Source: an uncultured Gammaproteobacteria bacterium (lineage in GTDB: Bacteria; Patescibacteriota; Patescibacteriia; Magasanikbacterales; UBA922). From it: a stretch of 64,000 nt of DNA. Numbering within the stretch: the stretch's first letter is position 1; each line of letters begins with the position of its first letter. The notes under the pieces are model-generated. The model was not told the DNA's origin and ran no database searches. It saw nothing but the letters and a program-made list of their open reading frames with translations. A program made the position numbers and the translations under genes. Shown one piece after another: positions 3,261 to 54,918 of the stretch. Where the stretch lies: NCBI GenBank assembly GCA_964612105.1, contig CAZTEU010000003.1:67050-131049 (forward strand), given 5' to 3'.

Positions 3261-4511
3261 TTATATAATTGAGTCTTCTTGTGTTTTGAAAATAAATCCT
3301 CTACCCCAATAATTCCAAACGTCTACAAATTGTTTGTTGGTATAACGGTATAGGTCTATATGTTTATACATATTGTGTGGTACACCAAGTATTATCACAT
3401 CTGAATCTCTTAATACCTGATCAAGTGAGCAAAACTCTGGACTTTCAAAAAATGGATCATGGCACAATACATTATCAGATGACATTAGAGCAACTTTTCT
3501 TAATTTGAAAGACAAACTATCCCGAATATCATCACTCTCTGCCTTAAAGGTCATTCCTAATATTCCAATGCTTTTATTCTTGATTGACCCCCCATTATTT
3601 TTCTTTATCTGTTCTATAATGAAATTTGGCAGACCTTCGTTAACAAGCATTGCGGAGTGTCCGAGCATGAAATTATTGTTGGTGAAAGCGGACAATTGCA
3701 TTGTATCTTTGAGTAAACAAGGACCAGCTGAAAATCCAGGCTTTGGAATGTTTTTTGCACGATCATAGTCTACAGTCATTATTTCATATATTTTGTGGTA
3801 ATCCAAATCATATGATGAAGCACTCATAAAGAACTGGTTTGCAACAGCAAAAGTAATATATCTCCAAGCATTACAGAATAGCTTTGATAGTTCAGCCTCC
3901 ATTGGTTTAGCATGAACTATTCTTGCATTTGTAATTCTTTTGAATAGTTTAGAAACGGTTTGAGTTGTTTGAGGATCAAATGCAGAAACAATCTGTGGAA
4001 GTTTTTTTATTTCTTCTAAAGCCTTACCTTCTACTATCCTTTCTGGACAGAATGAAACTCTTACTCTTTTTCCTTTATCATTAAAGTAACTTTGCAAACG
4101 TTCTGACGTGCCAGGATACACAGTGCTTCGTAGTATAAGTATTTGCTCATCATTAAAGTAAGGAAAATATTCATCCATTGTGCTTAATATCCCATGAAAA
4201 TTTGGATTCAAATACTCATCTATAGGAGTTCCAATTACAGTTATTATAGCATTACTCCTAGTTATTGCACTTGGATCAGTTTCACAAAATAATTTATTAT
4301 CTTCTAACACCTTATTCAAAGCATCCTCCCCACCTTCTTCCTTAAAAGGAAATACTCCAGAACTTATTTTGTCTAATACATCCTTATTTGTATCCAGTAA
4401 AACTGTCTTTACTCCAGAATTTGCAAAAGCAACCCCAAGAGGGAGTCCGATATGACCACCCCCACCTATAATACATACATCGTATTTTTCTTTTATATCA
4501 TTTTGAAACAT
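3261..4511 (-). CDS. Nucleotide-sugar dehydrogenase (UDP-glucose/UDP-ManNAc/GDP-mannose 6-dehydrogenase family).
   Basis: N-terminal IIGGGGHIGLPLG Rossmann motif, a CPERIVEGKA motif, and a catalytic Cys in GFSAGPCLLKD. Confidence 0.75.
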   Translation of the reverse strand: MFQNDIKEKYDVCIIGGGGHIGLPLGVAFANSGVKTVLLDTNKDVLDKISSGVFPFKEEGGEDALNKVLEDNKLFCETDPSAITRSNAIITVIGTPIDEYLNPNFHGILSTMDEYFPYFNDEQILILRSTVYPGTSERLQSYFNDKGKRVRVSFCPERIVEGKALEEIKKLPQIVSAFDPQTTQTVSKLFKRITNARIVHAKPMEAELSKLFCNAWRYITFAVANQFFMSASSYDLDYHKIYEIMTVDYDRAKNIPKPGFSAGPCLLKDTMQLSAFTNNNFMLGHSAMLVNEGLPNFIIEQIKKNNGGSIKNKSIGILGMTFKAESDDIRDSLSFKLRKVALMSSDNVLCHDPFFESPEFCSLDQVLRDSDVIILGVPHNMYKHIDLYRYTNKQFVDVWNYWGRGFIFKTQEDSII

Positions 4512-28476: not shown

Positions 28477-29811
28477 TTATAAAAAAATAGAAATGTGACT
28501 TTGTATAACAGGCCAGAAAAGAATTACATCTAATAAACATATTATGAAAAAGAAGCCAAGTACATATAGTTGCACTCTTTTTTCTTCCTTACTAAGGCCA
28601 TGTATAAGTCTTGTTATACAATACGCACCAAACAAGGCTAGGAACGGATATATCTGAAACCTATACCGTGAAGCTACTACTGTAGGGATAAGAGGAATTG
28701 GAGCAGTAATTGCAAGTGCCAATAGATAATATATTAAACTTTCTTTTCTTCTAAAAAGTAACACTGCACCACATGCTCCAGATACAAATAGCACAACTAT
28801 TGATACTAATGAGCTTGCAACAAATATTAATTGCTGTAGTCCTGTTTGGTAGAACCAAAAACCCATTGGTCTAATTAAACTAGTATATCTCACGACCCTT
28901 ATTAAAGATAATTTTATAAAGCGAACAGGTTGTGTGGTTATGATATTAAAAAATTCAGCTCTAGACCTTTCCTTTAGTTGTAAAAAGCCTTCCTTTTCTG
29001 TGTAGGTAGTTAGAGGATTAAAGCCTCCAGAAATCTGACCGCCATCCGCAGTAGAGATATTACCAACCCATAAATTATATTCCCCTATTAATGTTGTCGG
29101 AATGAATTGGTGATAAACTGAGTAATTCCTAATAATCCATGGTGAAAGAACTAGTGTGCATGCGAAAATAAACAAAATGGCACGATTCATTTGTCTCTTA
29201 GTAATCCACATGAACAGGAATATTGGAGCAAAGAGTAACAAGGGAGGTCGTGTGAGAATTCCTATACCAGTAAGTACACCGAGAAGCAGTGCGTAATATA
29301 GAGACCTGTTCTTGTTGTAACTTAATACAAATACATACATTATTAGTATAGTAAAAAACAAGTATAGGGTCTCTGTCATTATCATTGCAGAAATTTCTAT
29401 AAGATCAGGATGCAGCCCAAACAGAGCTGTTGCCAATAGTGCTATCGTGTCTCGCCCACGATATCCACGGAACACAATTCTTGCAGTTAAGAAAAGTAAC
29501 AAAGCAGATAGCCCATGAAGTATAGCTTGAATAATCCACACAGCCTCATATGAGTGACCAAAAACAGCATATATTCCGGCAAGAAAGAATTCATAACCGG
29601 GACCAGCTCTAACTATTGAGGTATCAAATAACAAAGGAACATTAAGATTTTCACGAAAACCAGAGCCATTTAGTATATTCATTGCTATATTATCGTACGC
29701 CTGTGCATCAACCACAGGAGCAATTTGATGTACGAAAGAATACACTAATGGAATAAGTGTAGATAGTAATAAAATTGCTACTAAAAATACTTTTACTCTT
29801 TTATTCATCAC
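28477..29811 (-). CDS. GT-C-like polytopic membrane glycosyltransferase.
   Basis: Multi-TM topology. The first loop carries VDAQAYDNIA (D-x-x-x-Y-D). Sits next to a GT2 gene. Confidence 0.45.
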   Translation of the reverse strand: MMNKRVKVFLVAILLLSTLIPLVYSFVHQIAPVVDAQAYDNIAMNILNGSGFRENLNVPLLFDTSIVRAGPGYEFFLAGIYAVFGHSYEAVWIIQAILHGLSALLLFLTARIVFRGYRGRDTIALLATALFGLHPDLIEISAMIMTETLYLFFTILIMYVFVLSYNKNRSLYYALLLGVLTGIGILTRPPLLLFAPIFLFMWITKRQMNRAILFIFACTLVLSPWIIRNYSVYHQFIPTTLIGEYNLWVGNISTADGGQISGGFNPLTTYTEKEGFLQLKERSRAEFFNIITTQPVRFIKLSLIRVVRYTSLIRPMGFWFYQTGLQQLIFVASSLVSIVVLFVSGACGAVLLFRRKESLIYYLLALAITAPIPLIPTVVASRYRFQIYPFLALFGAYCITRLIHGLSKEEKRVQLYVLGFFFIICLLDVILFWPVIQSHISIFL

Positions 29812-51692: not shown

Positions 51693-52266
51693 GTGAGTCT
51701 TGTGTGATTCTTTTTAATACTTTTAGTGCTCTGTGTAATGTAACTCGCACATTTGAACCAGACTTTTCAGTTATGTGAGCAATCTCAGATATAGACAAGT
51801 CATCCACATACCTGAGCACAATTACCTCTTGGTACTCATTTTTTAGCTTCTTAATCTGCTGAAGTAGAGCTTGTGTATTTTGATGTAGCTCTATCTCATT
51901 TATTAGAGTATTTTCACGAGCGTACTCTTTTACTTGATCCAGACTACACTCTTTGGTCTTGGCACGTTTTCTATAAACATCCACAACAGCATTACGCGCA
52001 ATTCGGTAGACTAAGCCACTAAAGCTTCTTGTTCTTTTGTTTGAATGATCTATTAAATAGTTCCACGTTTTGAGGAAGACTTCGCTTGTAATATCTTCAG
52101 CCTCTTCTCTATTTGATAGCTTCAGATAAACAAACCTATAAATTTTATCAACATACTTATCGTACAGCTCTGCGAAGGCATCCGGATCTCTCTTAGCTTG
52201 AGCACGATATATAAGTATTTGTTCACTAATATTTTTCCTCATAATAGAAGACGCAGAAGTTACCAA
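51685..52266 (-). CDS. RNA polymerase sigma-70-family (ECF-type) sigma factor.
   Basis: Region 2 (FAELYDKYVDKIYRFVYLKLSNREEAEDITSEVFLKTWNY) and a region-4 HTH (LSISEIAHITEKSGSNVRVTLHRALKVLK). The true start is probably the ATG at 52242 (MRKNISEQ); the track start is a TTG. Confidence 0.75.
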   Translation of the reverse strand: MVTSASSIMRKNISEQILIYRAQAKRDPDAFAELYDKYVDKIYRFVYLKLSNREEAEDITSEVFLKTWNYLIDHSNKRTRSFSGLVYRIARNAVVDVYRKRAKTKECSLDQVKEYARENTLINEIELHQNTQALLQQIKKLKNEYQEVIVLRYVDDLSISEIAHITEKSGSNVRVTLHRALKVLKRITQDSHE

Positions 52267-52275
52267 AATGTTACA
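52250..52275 (-). promoter_or_regulatory. ECF-type promoter (GTAAC-N16-CGTC) directly upstream of the sigma-factor gene; probably autoregulated and leaderless.
   Basis: Minus strand reads TGTAAC, 16 nt, CGTC, 7 nt, ATG. This spacing and the AAC...CGT core match ECF sigma promoters. Confidence 0.35.
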
Positions 52276-52514
52276 CTTTTAATAAACTACCAATCACAAT
52301 TACTTGAACACAAAACAAAGCTTTCAAAAAAACGTCCATATTATCCTTTATTATAGCAAAATTTCAGCATAAGTACAGTAGACCACGAATATCTAATCGG
52401 CGACTATTATAGTGAAATAATGCATGAAAGTCAAGTGTAGAAGTACACAAAAAAATATTGGTAATTTACTAAAGGGCAAAAAAGCACATATGCTTAATAA
52501 GAATTACTATTCTA

Positions 52515-52535
52515 TTTGTATAGACTATTGTATAC
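52515..52535. promoter_or_regulatory. Palindromic operator copy A (degenerate).
   Basis: TTTGTATAGACTATTGTATAC is an imperfect version of the 24-bp palindrome repeated at 52583 and 52671. Confidence 0.35.
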
Positions 52536-52582
52536 TTTCTTTACGTTTATTAGGTTATTTTAGCCAATTTACTATACGGGTG

Positions 52583-52606
52583 TTTGTATAGAGTAGTGTA
52601 TACAAA
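52583..52606. promoter_or_regulatory. Palindromic operator copy B.
   Basis: TTTGTATAGAGTAGTGTATACAAA. The half-sites TTTGTATA/TATACAAA are perfect reverse complements. Confidence 0.45.
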
Positions 52607-52642
52607 CTAACACAATAGAGACACAGTATTATTGTGTATTTA

Positions 52643-52671
52643 TTGACAAGTTTAGCCAAAAATGATACTGT
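52643..52671 (+). promoter_or_regulatory. Promoter of the HTH regulator gene, bracketed by operator copies B and C.
   Basis: TTGACA at 52643-52648, 15-17 nt spacer, then GATACT/TACTGT. Operator C starts right after the -10 element. Confidence 0.35.
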
Positions 52672-52694
52672 TTGTATAGATTAGTGTATACAAA
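52671..52694. promoter_or_regulatory. Palindromic operator copy C, abutting the HTH gene start codon.
   Basis: TTTGTATAGATTAGTGTATACAAA ends 2 nt before the ATG at 52697. It differs from copy B at 2 of 24 positions. Confidence 0.45.
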
Positions 52695-52696
52695 TT

Positions 52697-53014
52697 ATGA
52701 ATATAGAGGAAAAGGAAATTGTTAGATTATCTGTCTCAGAGGCAGCAAGATTGTTTGGAGTGAACGCTCAGACAATAAGACGTGCAATAAAAGACCAGGA
52801 AATTACCTACATTGTTGTGGGTGGAAGATATAAGATTAATTTTGAAAGTCTTGTGCGTTGGTCACAAAGAAAGACTACGGTGCAGAATAAAATGAATACT
52901 CGAGGAATTGGACAATATGTTGGAAAATGGAGAATTAAGAACACTCTTTATTCCCCAAGTAAAAAATCTGTTCCGAAAAAACCTGAGGATGATAATTCCT
53001 CAGAACAGAAATAA
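52697..53014 (+). CDS. Excisionase/MerR-superfamily HTH DNA-binding protein (HTH_17-like), 105 aa.
   Basis: LSVSEAARLFGVNAQTIRRAIKDQEITYIVVGGRYKI is the canonical excisionase-family HTH. The basic C-terminal tail is atypical. Confidence 0.6.
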   Translation: MNIEEKEIVRLSVSEAARLFGVNAQTIRRAIKDQEITYIVVGGRYKINFESLVRWSQRKTTVQNKMNTRGIGQYVGKWRIKNTLYSPSKKSVPKKPEDDNSSEQK

Positions 53015-53015
53015 T

Positions 53016-53037
53016 CCGCCTTCTGGCGGTTTTTTTT
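53016..53037 (+). terminator. Rho-independent terminator.
   Basis: CCGCC-TTCT-GGCGG hairpin followed by T8, 2 nt after the stop codon. Confidence 0.65.
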
Positions 53038-53049
53038 ATCACACTATCG

Positions 53050-53058
53050 TGGTATTAT
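53050..53058 (+). promoter_or_regulatory. Extended -10 promoter (TGgTATTAT) for the downstream membrane protein; leaderless.
   Basis: TGGTATTAT ends 6 nt before the ATG at 53065. No clear -35 element. Confidence 0.3.
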
Positions 53059-53064
53059 AGTGTT

Positions 53065-54918
53065 ATGAAATTCGTAGAAAAGTATCTCAATAGGCACCAT
53101 TTTTTTAATAGTCCACATAAATGGTTTTTTTCTTTTCTATCTTCTCCTATTCACTTTGCAGAACTGCACTACAAGAAAAAATATCATCTAAGCTTTGTTC
53201 ACGCAAAGAAATTGTTCTTCTTTGACATGGTTCTTTTATGTACTGTACTCGTCCTATCCTCACTTACTATATTTTGGTTTTCTTATGATCCTACTGTACT
53301 TGGTGATATTGGTTTGAACATATCATCTCCTCAATCTCGCATTGCGTCAGGTGAACATGTGGATTTTGCAATCAATTTTGAAAATACCAGTGGCTCATTG
53401 TTAGTTGATTCGTCAATTGCACTGCTACTCCCAGAAAGCTTTATCCTTGATATATCAAGTCTCTCAAAAAACTATCCTTTTTCTAATACTTCTAAATCTT
53501 TCAGCGTTGGAGATCTACATCCAGGCGCAAACGGAAAGATTACTCTGTCTGGATGGTTTTATGGTGAGCCGGAAATACAGGAACGAATTACCGCAAGACT
53601 TTCTTATTTACAAGAAAAGCGTGATGTAAGAGAATTTAAAGATGCTACAATATTGCAAACACCTAGAGGTTCGCTGATTAAGGCATCTATAAATATGCCT
53701 GACTCAATACTATCGTCAGGAGAAATTGATTTTAATATTAATCTATCAGGAGAAATTACAGATCAGATTGACTCTATATCACTTAATATATCAAATTCAA
53801 ACTTTAAACTGTCTTCACATTCAAAACCCTCGCAAGGATTAGTGGAAAAAGGGGTGTGGATAATTCCTATAGATGAAGGACAAACGAGTATAAATGCAAA
53901 AATGTCTGGAAAATTATCATATAGTGTAGTAAATAATCAACAAACTAGCACATACACAGTTACCCCAAAAATAGTTCTTCAAAATAAGCCTTTTCTACAA
54001 GTTCCAGTAACGAAGAGTCTTGGTGTAGTAAATCCAAAAATGTCTCTTTCTGGATTGTGGATAAGCGGACAAACTGCACATCCAGGTGATATAACTAAAT
54101 TAAAAATAAAGGTACAAAACACTGGACACATAAAGCTAGTGGATGGATCTATATCTTTTGATGTGCCAGATCAAGTAGATGTTGTGAAACTTATTGATAA
54201 TAATGTTGGCCTGTATAGCAACCAAACATATACTGTAACTGCAGGACACAACGCTGGACTCAAATCAATTGGTCCAGGAGAAATAAAAGAGGTCATTTTA
54301 GAGATACCTATTAAAAATAATATTTTAGAGGGAGAGAACATAGAAATAAAAATAGACCCTAAATTAGAGGCGCAAATTCCATCAATGTCTGGAACTAAGT
54401 ACAACACTCAGTCCAGCATTCCAGAAGTTAGAGTGTCTACAGATTTGGCACTTGGTGGCTCGCTTATGTACTACACGGGTGATGGAGAGCAAATAGGTAG
54501 AGGTCCGTTACCTCCACAAGTTGGAAAACAAACAACATACTGGGCAACAATCTCAGTTAAAAATACCACAAACAAACTAGAATATCTTCAATTTATAGCA
54601 GAATTATCAGATAGGGCAATCTGGCTAGACAAATCAAGTGTAAGTCATGGAAAAACGCTTCATTATGACAGTAAAACCCATTCTGTAACCTGGTCTCTTC
54701 CGGAGATGAGCACCCACGACATTGCTGGGATATATATGGGTATAGGCTATATCCCAACTCCTGAAGATATTGGAAATACACCTGTATTAATAAAACATAT
54801 TGCTACCCGAGGTGTTGATACTTTTGTAGATGAAAACATCAAAAAGACCTTATCATCAATAGACATATCACTAAAAGGTGACCAAAAAGCACAGAAAAGA
54901 GGGGTTGCTGTACAATAG
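53065..54918 (+). CDS. Hypothetical membrane-anchored extracellular protein with beta-rich repeats.
   Basis: Cytoplasmic N-terminus, one TM helix (MVLLCTVLVLSSLTIFWF), then about 540 aa hydrophilic and rich in S/T/N/G/I. No recognizable catalytic motif. Confidence 0.5.
   Translation: MKFVEKYLNRHHFFNSPHKWFFSFLSSPIHFAELHYKKKYHLSFVHAKKLFFFDMVLLCTVLVLSSLTIFWFSYDPTVLGDIGLNISSPQSRIASGEHVDFAINFENTSGSLLVDSSIALLLPESFILDISSLSKNYPFSNTSKSFSVGDLHPGANGKITLSGWFYGEPEIQERITARLSYLQEKRDVREFKDATILQTPRGSLIKASINMPDSILSSGEIDFNINLSGEITDQIDSISLNISNSNFKLSSHSKPSQGLVEKGVWIIPIDEGQTSINAKMSGKLSYSVVNNQQTSTYTVTPKIVLQNKPFLQVPVTKSLGVVNPKMSLSGLWISGQTAHPGDITKLKIKVQNTGHIKLVDGSISFDVPDQVDVVKLIDNNVGLYSNQTYTVTAGHNAGLKSIGPGEIKEVILEIPIKNNILEGENIEIKIDPKLEAQIPSMSGTKYNTQSSIPEVRVSTDLALGGSLMYYTGDGEQIGRGPLPPQVGKQTTYWATISVKNTTNKLEYLQFIAELSDRAIWLDKSSVSHGKTLHYDSKTHSVTWSLPEMSTHDIAGIYMGIGYIPTPEDIGNTPVLIKHIATRGVDTFVDENIKKTLSSIDISLKGDQKAQKRGVAVQ

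Follow-up and report, generated by a model that had tools for sequence, protein, structure and literature searches.

A conserved palindrome at the promoter of an excisionase-family regulator gene of Magasanikbacteria recurs beside DnaA boxes and parS-like sites

What does a small DNA-binding protein of the "excisionase family" control when its gene stands behind an array of palindromes on a bacterial chromosome? This question is raised by a 64,000-nucleotide stretch of contig CAZTEU010000003.1 (assembly GCA_964612105.1, forward-strand positions 67,050 to 131,049; hereafter the window), which is recorded as an uncultured Gammaproteobacteria bacterium and placed by GTDB in the Magasanikbacterales of the Patescibacteriota. 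Within it, a gene for a 105-aa helix-turn-helix (HTH) protein is preceded by three copies of a 24-bp palindrome. An original prediction, made from the letters alone, described these copies as the operators of an autoregulated, stand-alone transcription factor that would also control the surface-protein genes behind it. In the Patescibacteria, or Candidate Phyla Radiation (CPR), almost nothing is known of gene regulation or replication control, because these bacteria are mostly uncultivated. The best explanation of the data as a whole, to which a probability of about 0.75 is attached, is that the HTH protein binds the palindromes, represses its own gene and acts beside DnaA.

All three copies proposed in the original prediction stand above background. 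The two near-identical ones, here called O2 and O1, had been placed exactly, and the degenerate distal copy, O3, occupies a full 24 bp, with three mismatches over the 24-mer and one within the 20-bp core (Table 1). Two perfect 24-mers are found in the window, against 0.00 expected from 100 shuffles. The operators were scored with a position weight matrix derived exclusively from sites at the orthologous loci of other species. Elsewhere in the window no position exceeds 5.9 bits, and the top score in 20 shuffled windows was 16.3 bits. Since O3 scores 26.9 bits against this shuffle maximum, it is regarded as a real site. The same scan found no fourth operator in the 64 kb, and a core match at 28601 was discarded, as its full-matrix score fell below background.

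The arrangement of the copies around the promoter was also as proposed, with O2 and O1 flanking a TTGACA promoter and the 3' end of O1 lying 2 nt from the ATG at 52697. O1 shares the last base of the -10 element and extends over the predicted start of transcription and almost all of the 5' leader. Transcription is predicted to start at about 52677-52679, in the left half of O1, and the centre of O2 lies about 84 bp upstream of that start. The extended -10 element had been missed by a simple consensus scan because its hexamer TACTGT fits the consensus at only 4 of 6 positions. There is no Shine-Dalgarno sequence between O1 and the ATG, which is normal here, because such a sequence precedes 2 of 40 genes among the ATG-start open reading frames (ORFs) of the window; translation initiation in the source organism seems largely Shine-Dalgarno-independent. 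The HTH gene is read as monocistronic because an intrinsic terminator directly follows it. In addition to the operators, the original prediction had pointed to a separate 8-bp inverted repeat between O2 and O1. The repeat (ACACAATA at 52610-52617 and TATTGTGT at 52630-52637) does exist; it was rejected as a functional element, as about 30% of random sequences of the same length and composition contain one, and it was not seen in the orthologous promoters compared.

Table 1. Positions of the operators, promoters, genes and terminator in the window, and of DnaA-box clusters at three other loci (numbered within each locus)
Feature	Position	Strand	Sequence or remark
Operator O3 (copy A), distal, degenerate	52515-52538; 20-bp core 52517-52536	none	TTTGTATAGACTATTGTATACTTT; core TGTATAGACTATTGTATACT; 26.9 bits with the orthologue-derived matrix
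Operator O2 (copy B)	52583-52606	none	TTTGTATAGAGTAGTGTATACAAA; perfect 8-N8-8 palindrome; 35.0 bits
Operator O1 (copy C)	52671-52694	none	TTTGTATAGATTAGTGTATACAAA; perfect 8-N8-8 palindrome; 34.7 bits
-35 hexamer of the HTH gene promoter	52643-52648	+	TTGACA; read from sequence
Extended -10 of the HTH gene promoter	52663-52671	+	TGaTACTGT; 17-bp spacer from the -35; read from sequence
HTH_17 gene, 105 aa	52697-53014	+	ORF with hidden Markov model (HMM) matches
Intrinsic terminator of the HTH gene	53016-53038	+	CCGCCTTCTGGCGG, then a run of T
Promoter of extracytoplasmic function (ECF) type, divergent ECF sigma gene (ATG 52242)	52245-52276	-	GTGTAACA-N15-CGTCTTCTA; 2 nt before the ATG
DUF11 gene	53065-54918		TGgTATTAT in 53046-53067, ends 6 nt before the ATG
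Near-consensus DnaA-box cluster without palindrome, locus L205	19912-20097
Near-consensus DnaA-box cluster without palindrome, locus L209	17323-17386
Near-consensus DnaA-box clusters without palindrome, locus L136	1485-1514 and 3031-3226		includes the region upstream of dnaA

Conservation of this layout across species provides the main evidence for assigning the palindromes to the adjacent HTH gene as its operators. In a scan with one genome per GTDB species, the HTH protein is encoded in at least 361 species; loci from 80 of these were fetched for comparison, and the site statistics cover 81 loci. At least one site with no more than one mismatch lies upstream of the gene in 74 of the 81 loci and at least three sites in 33, the usual number of copies being two or three. 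The perfect core, TGTATA-N8-TATACA, occurs 106 times in the 26.7 kb upstream of the orthologues and four times in the remaining 637 kb, an enrichment of about 630-fold, and none of the four stray cores lies downstream of the HTH gene. The palindrome is thus neither absent upstream of orthologous genes nor randomly scattered, the two outcomes that would have spoken against an operator. In four contigs that represent the same species in other samples, the intergenic regions are identical, so that they carry no footprinting information.

From 169 sites the consensus ttTGTATAnACTAGTnTATACAaa was derived, with arms that are over 92% invariant and variation confined to four inner positions. No compensatory changes are seen; this conservation of arm sequence without covariation fits protein-DNA recognition and not an RNA stem. 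The commonest form, TGTATACACTAGTGTATACA, is a perfect 20-bp palindrome and contains two copies, 12 bp apart, of the 8-mer TGTATACA, which is a palindrome in its own right. The position of the proximal site is likewise conserved. In 35 orthologous loci it directly follows a conserved TTGACA-17-TGn(-10) promoter and starts 20-26 nt, most commonly 23 nt, before the ATG, and it ends 3-4 nt short of the start codon. Furthermore, an 8-mer of the -35 region, TTGACAAA, recurs in 49 of the 74 intergenic regions compared. The spacing between O3 and O2 falls mainly into a class of 63-69 bp, with further classes of 32-33 and 79-82 bp, and that between O2 and O1 ranges across species from 26 to 215 bp with a median of 92. 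The distances in the window, 68 bp for O3-O2 and 88 bp for O2-O1, are typical of orthologous loci.

On these grounds of sequence and position, the three palindromes very probably form the autoregulatory operator array of the adjacent HTH gene. A conserved site overlaps the gene's own -10 element and transcription start both in the window and in the 35 orthologous loci, which is the standard layout of negative autoregulation and one from which repression may be deduced. The HTH protein itself is proposed as the binder on account of the positions of the sites at its own promoter and the taxonomic co-occurrence of protein and palindrome. Most likely, it binds each 20-24-bp palindrome as a dimer. 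Occupancy of O1 should block RNA polymerase at -10/+1, because O1 covers the transcription start and the short leader, and would in this way repress the protein's own synthesis. O2 and O3, located about 88 and 156 bp upstream, would probably raise local occupancy or cooperate by looping. The outcome of such a loop would be a stable level of HTH protein, and the autoregulatory circuit would set the dose of a factor acting beside DnaA.

The 105-aa protein belongs to a large and strongly conserved family. It matches Pfam HTH_17 (PF12728) at 42.9 bits and NCBIfam TIGR01764 ("excisionase family") at 40.1 bits, both above their cut-offs of 27 and 28.8; the match to MerR (PF00376), at 17.2 bits, is below the cut-off of 28.2. 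Homologues fall into more than 1,696 clusters, the best 120 of which share 68-99% identity, and across species the protein is typically 70-85% identical. Informative titles among the 80 fetched loci are mostly Candidatus Magasanikbacteria or Patescibacteria, and about 30 loci carry the generic label "uncultured Gammaproteobacteria", these being metagenome-assembled genomes from co-assemblies; the label is presumably a default of submission. Residues 10-90, including the recognition helix QTIRRA, are nearly invariant, as is a C-terminal GIGQYVxKWKIxNTLYSPS in the region of residues 62-105 that matches no known domain. In the AlphaFold model, the winged helix (residues 10-60) has a predicted local distance difference test (pLDDT) score of about 80-86 and the tail one below 50; the tail may need a partner or DNA in order to fold. 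The nearest folds in a Foldseek search were GlnR (4r4e, the top match, E 5e-3), Pukovnik Xis, RacA, BldC (6ama, 6amk), RdfS and pSK1 Par. These are matches at the level of fold, with every E above 1e-3, and a profile search of the PDB sequences found no relative at E <0.3. In the literature, nothing was found on the HTH family, the palindrome motif, DUF5667 or CPR origins.

The palindrome has a second set of locations, which the original prediction did not foresee. A metagenome collection was scanned with TGTATASACTAGTSTATACA, which returned at least 120 loci; all class counts that follow are among the matches listed. Of these, 38 loci are HTH promoters and 82 have no relative of the HTH gene in their flanks. 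With TTATNCACA as the exact DnaA box, the 82 non-HTH loci contain 3.70 boxes per kb up to a distance of 150 bp from a palindrome and 0.11 per kb in the remainder, a 34-fold difference, and 67 of them have at least one exact box that close. HTH promoters show a weak excess (0.44-0.46 against 0.12-0.16 per kb). Sites resembling parS (TGTTNCACGTGAAACA, up to two mismatches) cluster in the same way: among the 120 listed loci, 47 of 51 lie within 700 bp of a palindrome, and 13 are perfect. This strict association of the palindrome with DnaA-box arrays and parS is a new and unexpected result.

Two arrangements account for most of the 82 loci: 28 belong to class a, 27 to class b and three to both, with the two sites 2-6 kb apart, and the 24 unclassified loci are mostly short contigs, 17 of them with DnaA boxes. 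In class a, the order is tRNA-Arg(CCT), tRNA-Ala(CGC), a terminator, a DnaA-box array, the palindrome immediately behind it, AT-rich DNA (70% against an average of 60%) and two or three parS sites. The array consists of three or four boxes placed head-to-tail about 12 bp apart (TGTGGATAA...TGGGTATAA...GGGGATAAT), and the locus adjoins rmuC and a gene for a tetratricopeptide-repeat (TPR) membrane protein. In class b, the palindrome abuts the DnaA boxes at a fixed spacing, TTATCCACA-gtt-TGTATA, and a second palindrome follows 100-135 bp from the first. This second palindrome lies 3-7 nt from a strong TTGACA/TATAAT promoter in many loci and about 70-80 nt from it in L108, L205 and L209. Downstream of the palindromes and boxes, the promoter gives rise to a structured RNA of about 330 nt that is unannotated and has a terminator of its own. 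Behind it stands an operon with dksA-like, lspA and comM genes.

Several further observations were made at these loci. The RNA of about 330 nt was located at 8768-9090 of L205, 7247-7640 of L209 and about 3577-4030 of L108, and also in L100, L101, L116, L117, L145, L156, L172, L185 and L200. Compensatory changes are present at 19 of its 38 predicted pairs, and Rfam scans of the regions returned no credible family. In some genomes, a palindrome lies within the short spacer between tRNA-Arg(CCT) and tRNA-Ala(CGC), about 20 nt from each tRNA gene, where a separate promoter would not fit (L082 1930-1949, L106 8003-8022, L149 397-416). In L193, the same spacer is filled by four tandem units of about 78-80 bp, each with a perfect palindrome (3842-4097), and a fifth palindrome follows downstream, after the DnaA boxes. 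A different 8-mer, TTAGCCAA/TTGGCTAA, shows an enrichment of about 10-fold in the 80 bp next to the palindromes; this holds for HTH promoters as well as for DnaA-box loci, and the 8-mer frequently takes the form of TTGGCTA-N-TAGCCAA dyads. Its copies in the window lie at 52559-52567 and 52651-52659, the latter inside the promoter spacer, and it may be the site of a second factor.

The class-b sites are located in the vicinity of the dnaA gene. In L136, dnaA lies 6.5 kb from the palindromes, and in L205/L206 and L209 the dnaN-dnaA pair lies 8-11 kb from them. The gene in L136 was found with a Bacillus subtilis DnaA sequence as query (44% identity over 454 residues), and dnaA genes at other loci were confirmed independently by precomputed Pfam annotations. 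On contig PFBV01000003.1 of a Candidatus Magasanikbacteria genome (GCA_002778465.1), the HTH gene is at about 73 kb, the gene for elongation factor G (EF-G) at about 193 kb, a class-b palindrome at about 275 kb and dnaA, paired with dnaN, at about 286 kb, so that both kinds of site are present in a single genome. The best named matches of EF-G and ComM beside class-b sites are in Magasanikbacteria. Two long contigs retrieved by way of EF-G showed no palindromes near that gene, so adjacency to EF-G is not general.

The HTH protein probably also binds the palindromes next to DnaA boxes. In class a, the palindrome stands between the DnaA boxes and the AT-rich DNA with parS, and in class b between the boxes and the RNA promoter; bound there, the protein could gate the initiation of replication or the availability of DnaA, as integration host factor (IHF)/Fis, CtrA and Spo0A do. 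A real role in replication or DnaA control can be put forward tentatively, at somewhat less than even odds. The proposal that the protein is a DnaA partner specific to Magasanikbacteria, its palindrome abutting the last DnaA box of origin-proximal arrays, is possible and is offered with similar reserve. The palindrome-linked clusters may be parts of the origin, extra DnaA-binding loci of the kind represented by datA, DARS and the Bacillus DnaA-box clusters, or DnaA-regulated promoters.

The genes around the HTH gene form a conserved neighbourhood. The order giant surface protein, DUF5667 and ECF sigma gene, followed by the divergent HTH gene and DUF11, is kept in about 65-75 of 80 species, and a GT4 glycosyltransferase often follows the DUF11 membrane-protein gene. 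In the window, the neighbours are the ECF sigma factor, DUF5667, the surface protein, DUF11, a GT4 glycosyltransferase and a GHL15 protein. The ECF-type promoter motifs GTGTAACA and CGTCTTCTA recur in 43-46 of the 74 intergenic regions from orthologous loci, and the position of this promoter in the window suggests an autoregulated sigma transcript that is leaderless or nearly so. Because it lies about 240 bp from O3, it is not obviously operator-dependent. The extended -10 element before the DUF11 gene suggests that its mRNA is leaderless too. No palindrome was found at the DUF11 gene in any species, in the orthologous loci or in the scans of the window. The idea that the HTH protein controls the following surface-protein gene found no support, since a terminator and a separate DUF11 promoter intervene and no site lies there. 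The distribution of sites leaves the conserved gene neighbourhood unexplained.

Several findings weigh against the proposed explanation or parts of it. The variation in O2-O1 spacing across species speaks against a rigid cooperative geometry, and the conserved C-terminal third of the protein is modelled with low confidence, which bears on its presumed oligomeric state. The ECF sigma gene is also always adjacent, and another protein could bind the palindrome. Relaxed DnaA boxes also cluster, with no palindrome among them, in the dnaA-dnaN intergenic regions (Table 1), which brings the number of separate DnaA-box clusters in these genomes to at least three in a span of about 15 kb. Because the dnaA-dnaN regions have clusters of their own, the palindrome-linked ones may not be the origin itself. 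GC skew over 10-20 kb is ambiguous and is not counted as evidence: it runs in the expected direction at 12 of 17 loci, and the cumulative slope changes without a clean minimum.

Alternative accounts of the palindromes differ in what is thought to act on them. If they worked as RNA, they would be leader hairpins that attenuate or terminate transcription, and O1 is indeed partly transcribed and the 24-mers do fold, if weakly (-5.0 to -5.6 kcal/mol). However, the promoter is located downstream of O2 and O3, the predicted transcript begins inside the left arm of O1, so that the hairpin could not form, and an Rfam scan of the operator region gave no credible family. As the arms are moreover conserved in sequence without covariation and the motif also stands beside DnaA boxes, outside any obvious transcript, a function as RNA is very improbable. 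A second possibility is that another protein, such as one that partners DnaA or ParB, binds the palindrome and that the HTH gene is merely one of its targets. The motif is present at loci that encode no HTH relative, and the link between it and the HTH protein is indirect; set against this, the pattern is the usual signature of autoregulation, two or three sites occupying the promoter of the regulator itself and one of them keeping its place over the transcription start across dozens of species. The invariance of the recognition helix QTIRRA is matched by that of the palindrome arms, and the fold is shared with dimeric palindrome binders such as GlnR and RacA, which makes a different binder distinctly improbable.

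Where the HTH protein is accepted as the binder, its function could be placed elsewhere. The annotation itself would make it the excisionase (recombination directionality factor) of an integrated mobile element, with the repeats as arm-type binding sites. In favour of this stand the HTH_17 and TIGR01764 matches, weak PHROG matches to excisionases and the presence of Pukovnik Xis and RdfS among the nearest folds. No integrase was found among the neighbours examined, however, and IMG/VR (2.9 million viral contigs) contains neither a relative of the protein nor a copy of the palindrome. The chromosomal context is identical in about 70 species, the protein keeps its 70-85% identity over 361 species, and the repeats are palindromes around a promoter instead of direct repeats beside an attachment core. 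Because there is no viral relative and the chromosomal neighbourhood stays the same, the gene is not taken for a mobile-element excisionase; that reading is effectively refuted, and the data support the earlier view of a vertically conserved, chromosomal, stand-alone regulator that is not part of an excision module. A purely local regulator, which would control itself, the operon of ECF sigma, DUF5667 and giant surface protein, and DUF11, is a less remote alternative, under which the palindromes beside DnaA boxes would be unrelated or secondary. The conserved gene order and the location of O2 and O3 in the shared intergenic region favour it. Yet the DUF11 gene has no site in front and is separated by terminator and promoter from the HTH gene, a conserved ECF-type promoter at a distance from O3 serves the sigma operon, and no further site exists in the 64-kb window or, downstream of the HTH gene, among the four perfect cores in 637 kb of flanks. 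Together with the second, equally conserved set of palindrome locations, this renders a purely local role unlikely, and autorepression combined with action beside DnaA is preferred.

By analogy with known systems, the HTH protein may work like a multi-operator autoregulated repressor. The original prediction had likened the array to a phage CI/Cro switch, a likeness that stands as an analogy and no further. Lambda CI/Cro at OR1-3 and Fis at the fis promoter also have several palindromic sites at their own promoter; in the window, one copy covers the -10 and start and auxiliary copies stand upstream. In contrast to CI/Cro, the protein has a winged helix of the MerR/Xis type and not a lambda-repressor-like HTH, distances of 68 and 88 bp separate the operators, which are thus not adjacent, and there is neither a second repressor gene nor a divergent switch promoter, the divergent gene being an ECF sigma with its own promoter. 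GlnR and TnrA, MerR-family proteins of Bacillus, have a similarly small winged helix followed by a helix; they bind TGTNA-N7-TNACA palindromes, and GlnR autoregulates its own operon. The site described here, TGTATA-N8-TATACA, is 3 bp longer, and the HTH protein has no detectable sequence similarity to them and a different C-terminal extension, conserved only within its own family. The protein also differs from the MerR activators, whose operators lie in a 19-20-bp promoter spacer: its MerR match is below cut-off, its 105 aa include no effector domain, and the 17-bp spacer contains no palindrome, the sites lying upstream and downstream of the promoter.

Other relatives by fold offer closer parallels in context. 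RacA of B. subtilis and pSK1 Par have a similar winged helix, and here too palindromic sites are concentrated in the origin and parS region of the chromosome. RacA has a long coiled coil and GC-rich 14-bp "ram" sites at about 25 positions, whereas the present protein, at 105 aa, has one helix and a low-confidence tail, and its sites are AT-rich 20-24-mers at two or three loci, abutting DnaA boxes; the lack of a long coiled coil and the AT-rich sites set it apart from RacA-like anchoring proteins. BldC of Streptomyces is likewise a small, stand-alone, Xis/MerR-like chromosomal transcription factor and not an excisionase. It binds direct repeats as head-to-tail multimers, while the sites here are inverted repeats, although the palindromic TGTATACA, repeated at 12 bp, allows a direct-repeat reading. 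The excisionases Xis, RdfS and TorI share the DNA-binding domain family by HMM and fold, but have the integrase neighbours, mobile context and phage relatives that the HTH gene, with its vertical conservation and fixed neighbours, does not. Finally, sites interleaved with or abutting DnaA boxes are known for IHF/Fis (oriC, datA and DARS2 of E. coli), CtrA (Caulobacter) and Spo0A (B. subtilis oriC), and CtrA and Fis also regulate their own promoter, as proposed here for the HTH protein. Those factors belong to unrelated protein families; the present palindromes resemble their sites in that they abut DnaA boxes, with parS near and dnaA 6.5-11 kb away.

The analysis yields a nearly complete cis-regulatory picture for a lineage-wide CPR regulator, consisting of a 24-bp site, a promoter-operator layout and a very short list of targets. 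These targets point to DnaA-box arrays and parS, and away from both the "excisionase" annotation and the surface genes. If the proposed explanation is true, an excisionase-fold protein would be a core cell-cycle factor of a CPR lineage, its dose fixed by a three-operator loop, and would represent a new type of origin or DnaA accessory protein. The palindrome would then help in locating the origins of Magasanikbacteria, and part of the CPR annotations as "excisionase family DNA-binding protein" would refer to core chromosomal regulators.

A last observation concerns the remainder of the window. Upstream of the surface-protein operon, a nearly unbroken run of minus-strand genes extends over about 45 kb (1015-46186), and these genes look like a glycan or cell-envelope biosynthesis cluster.

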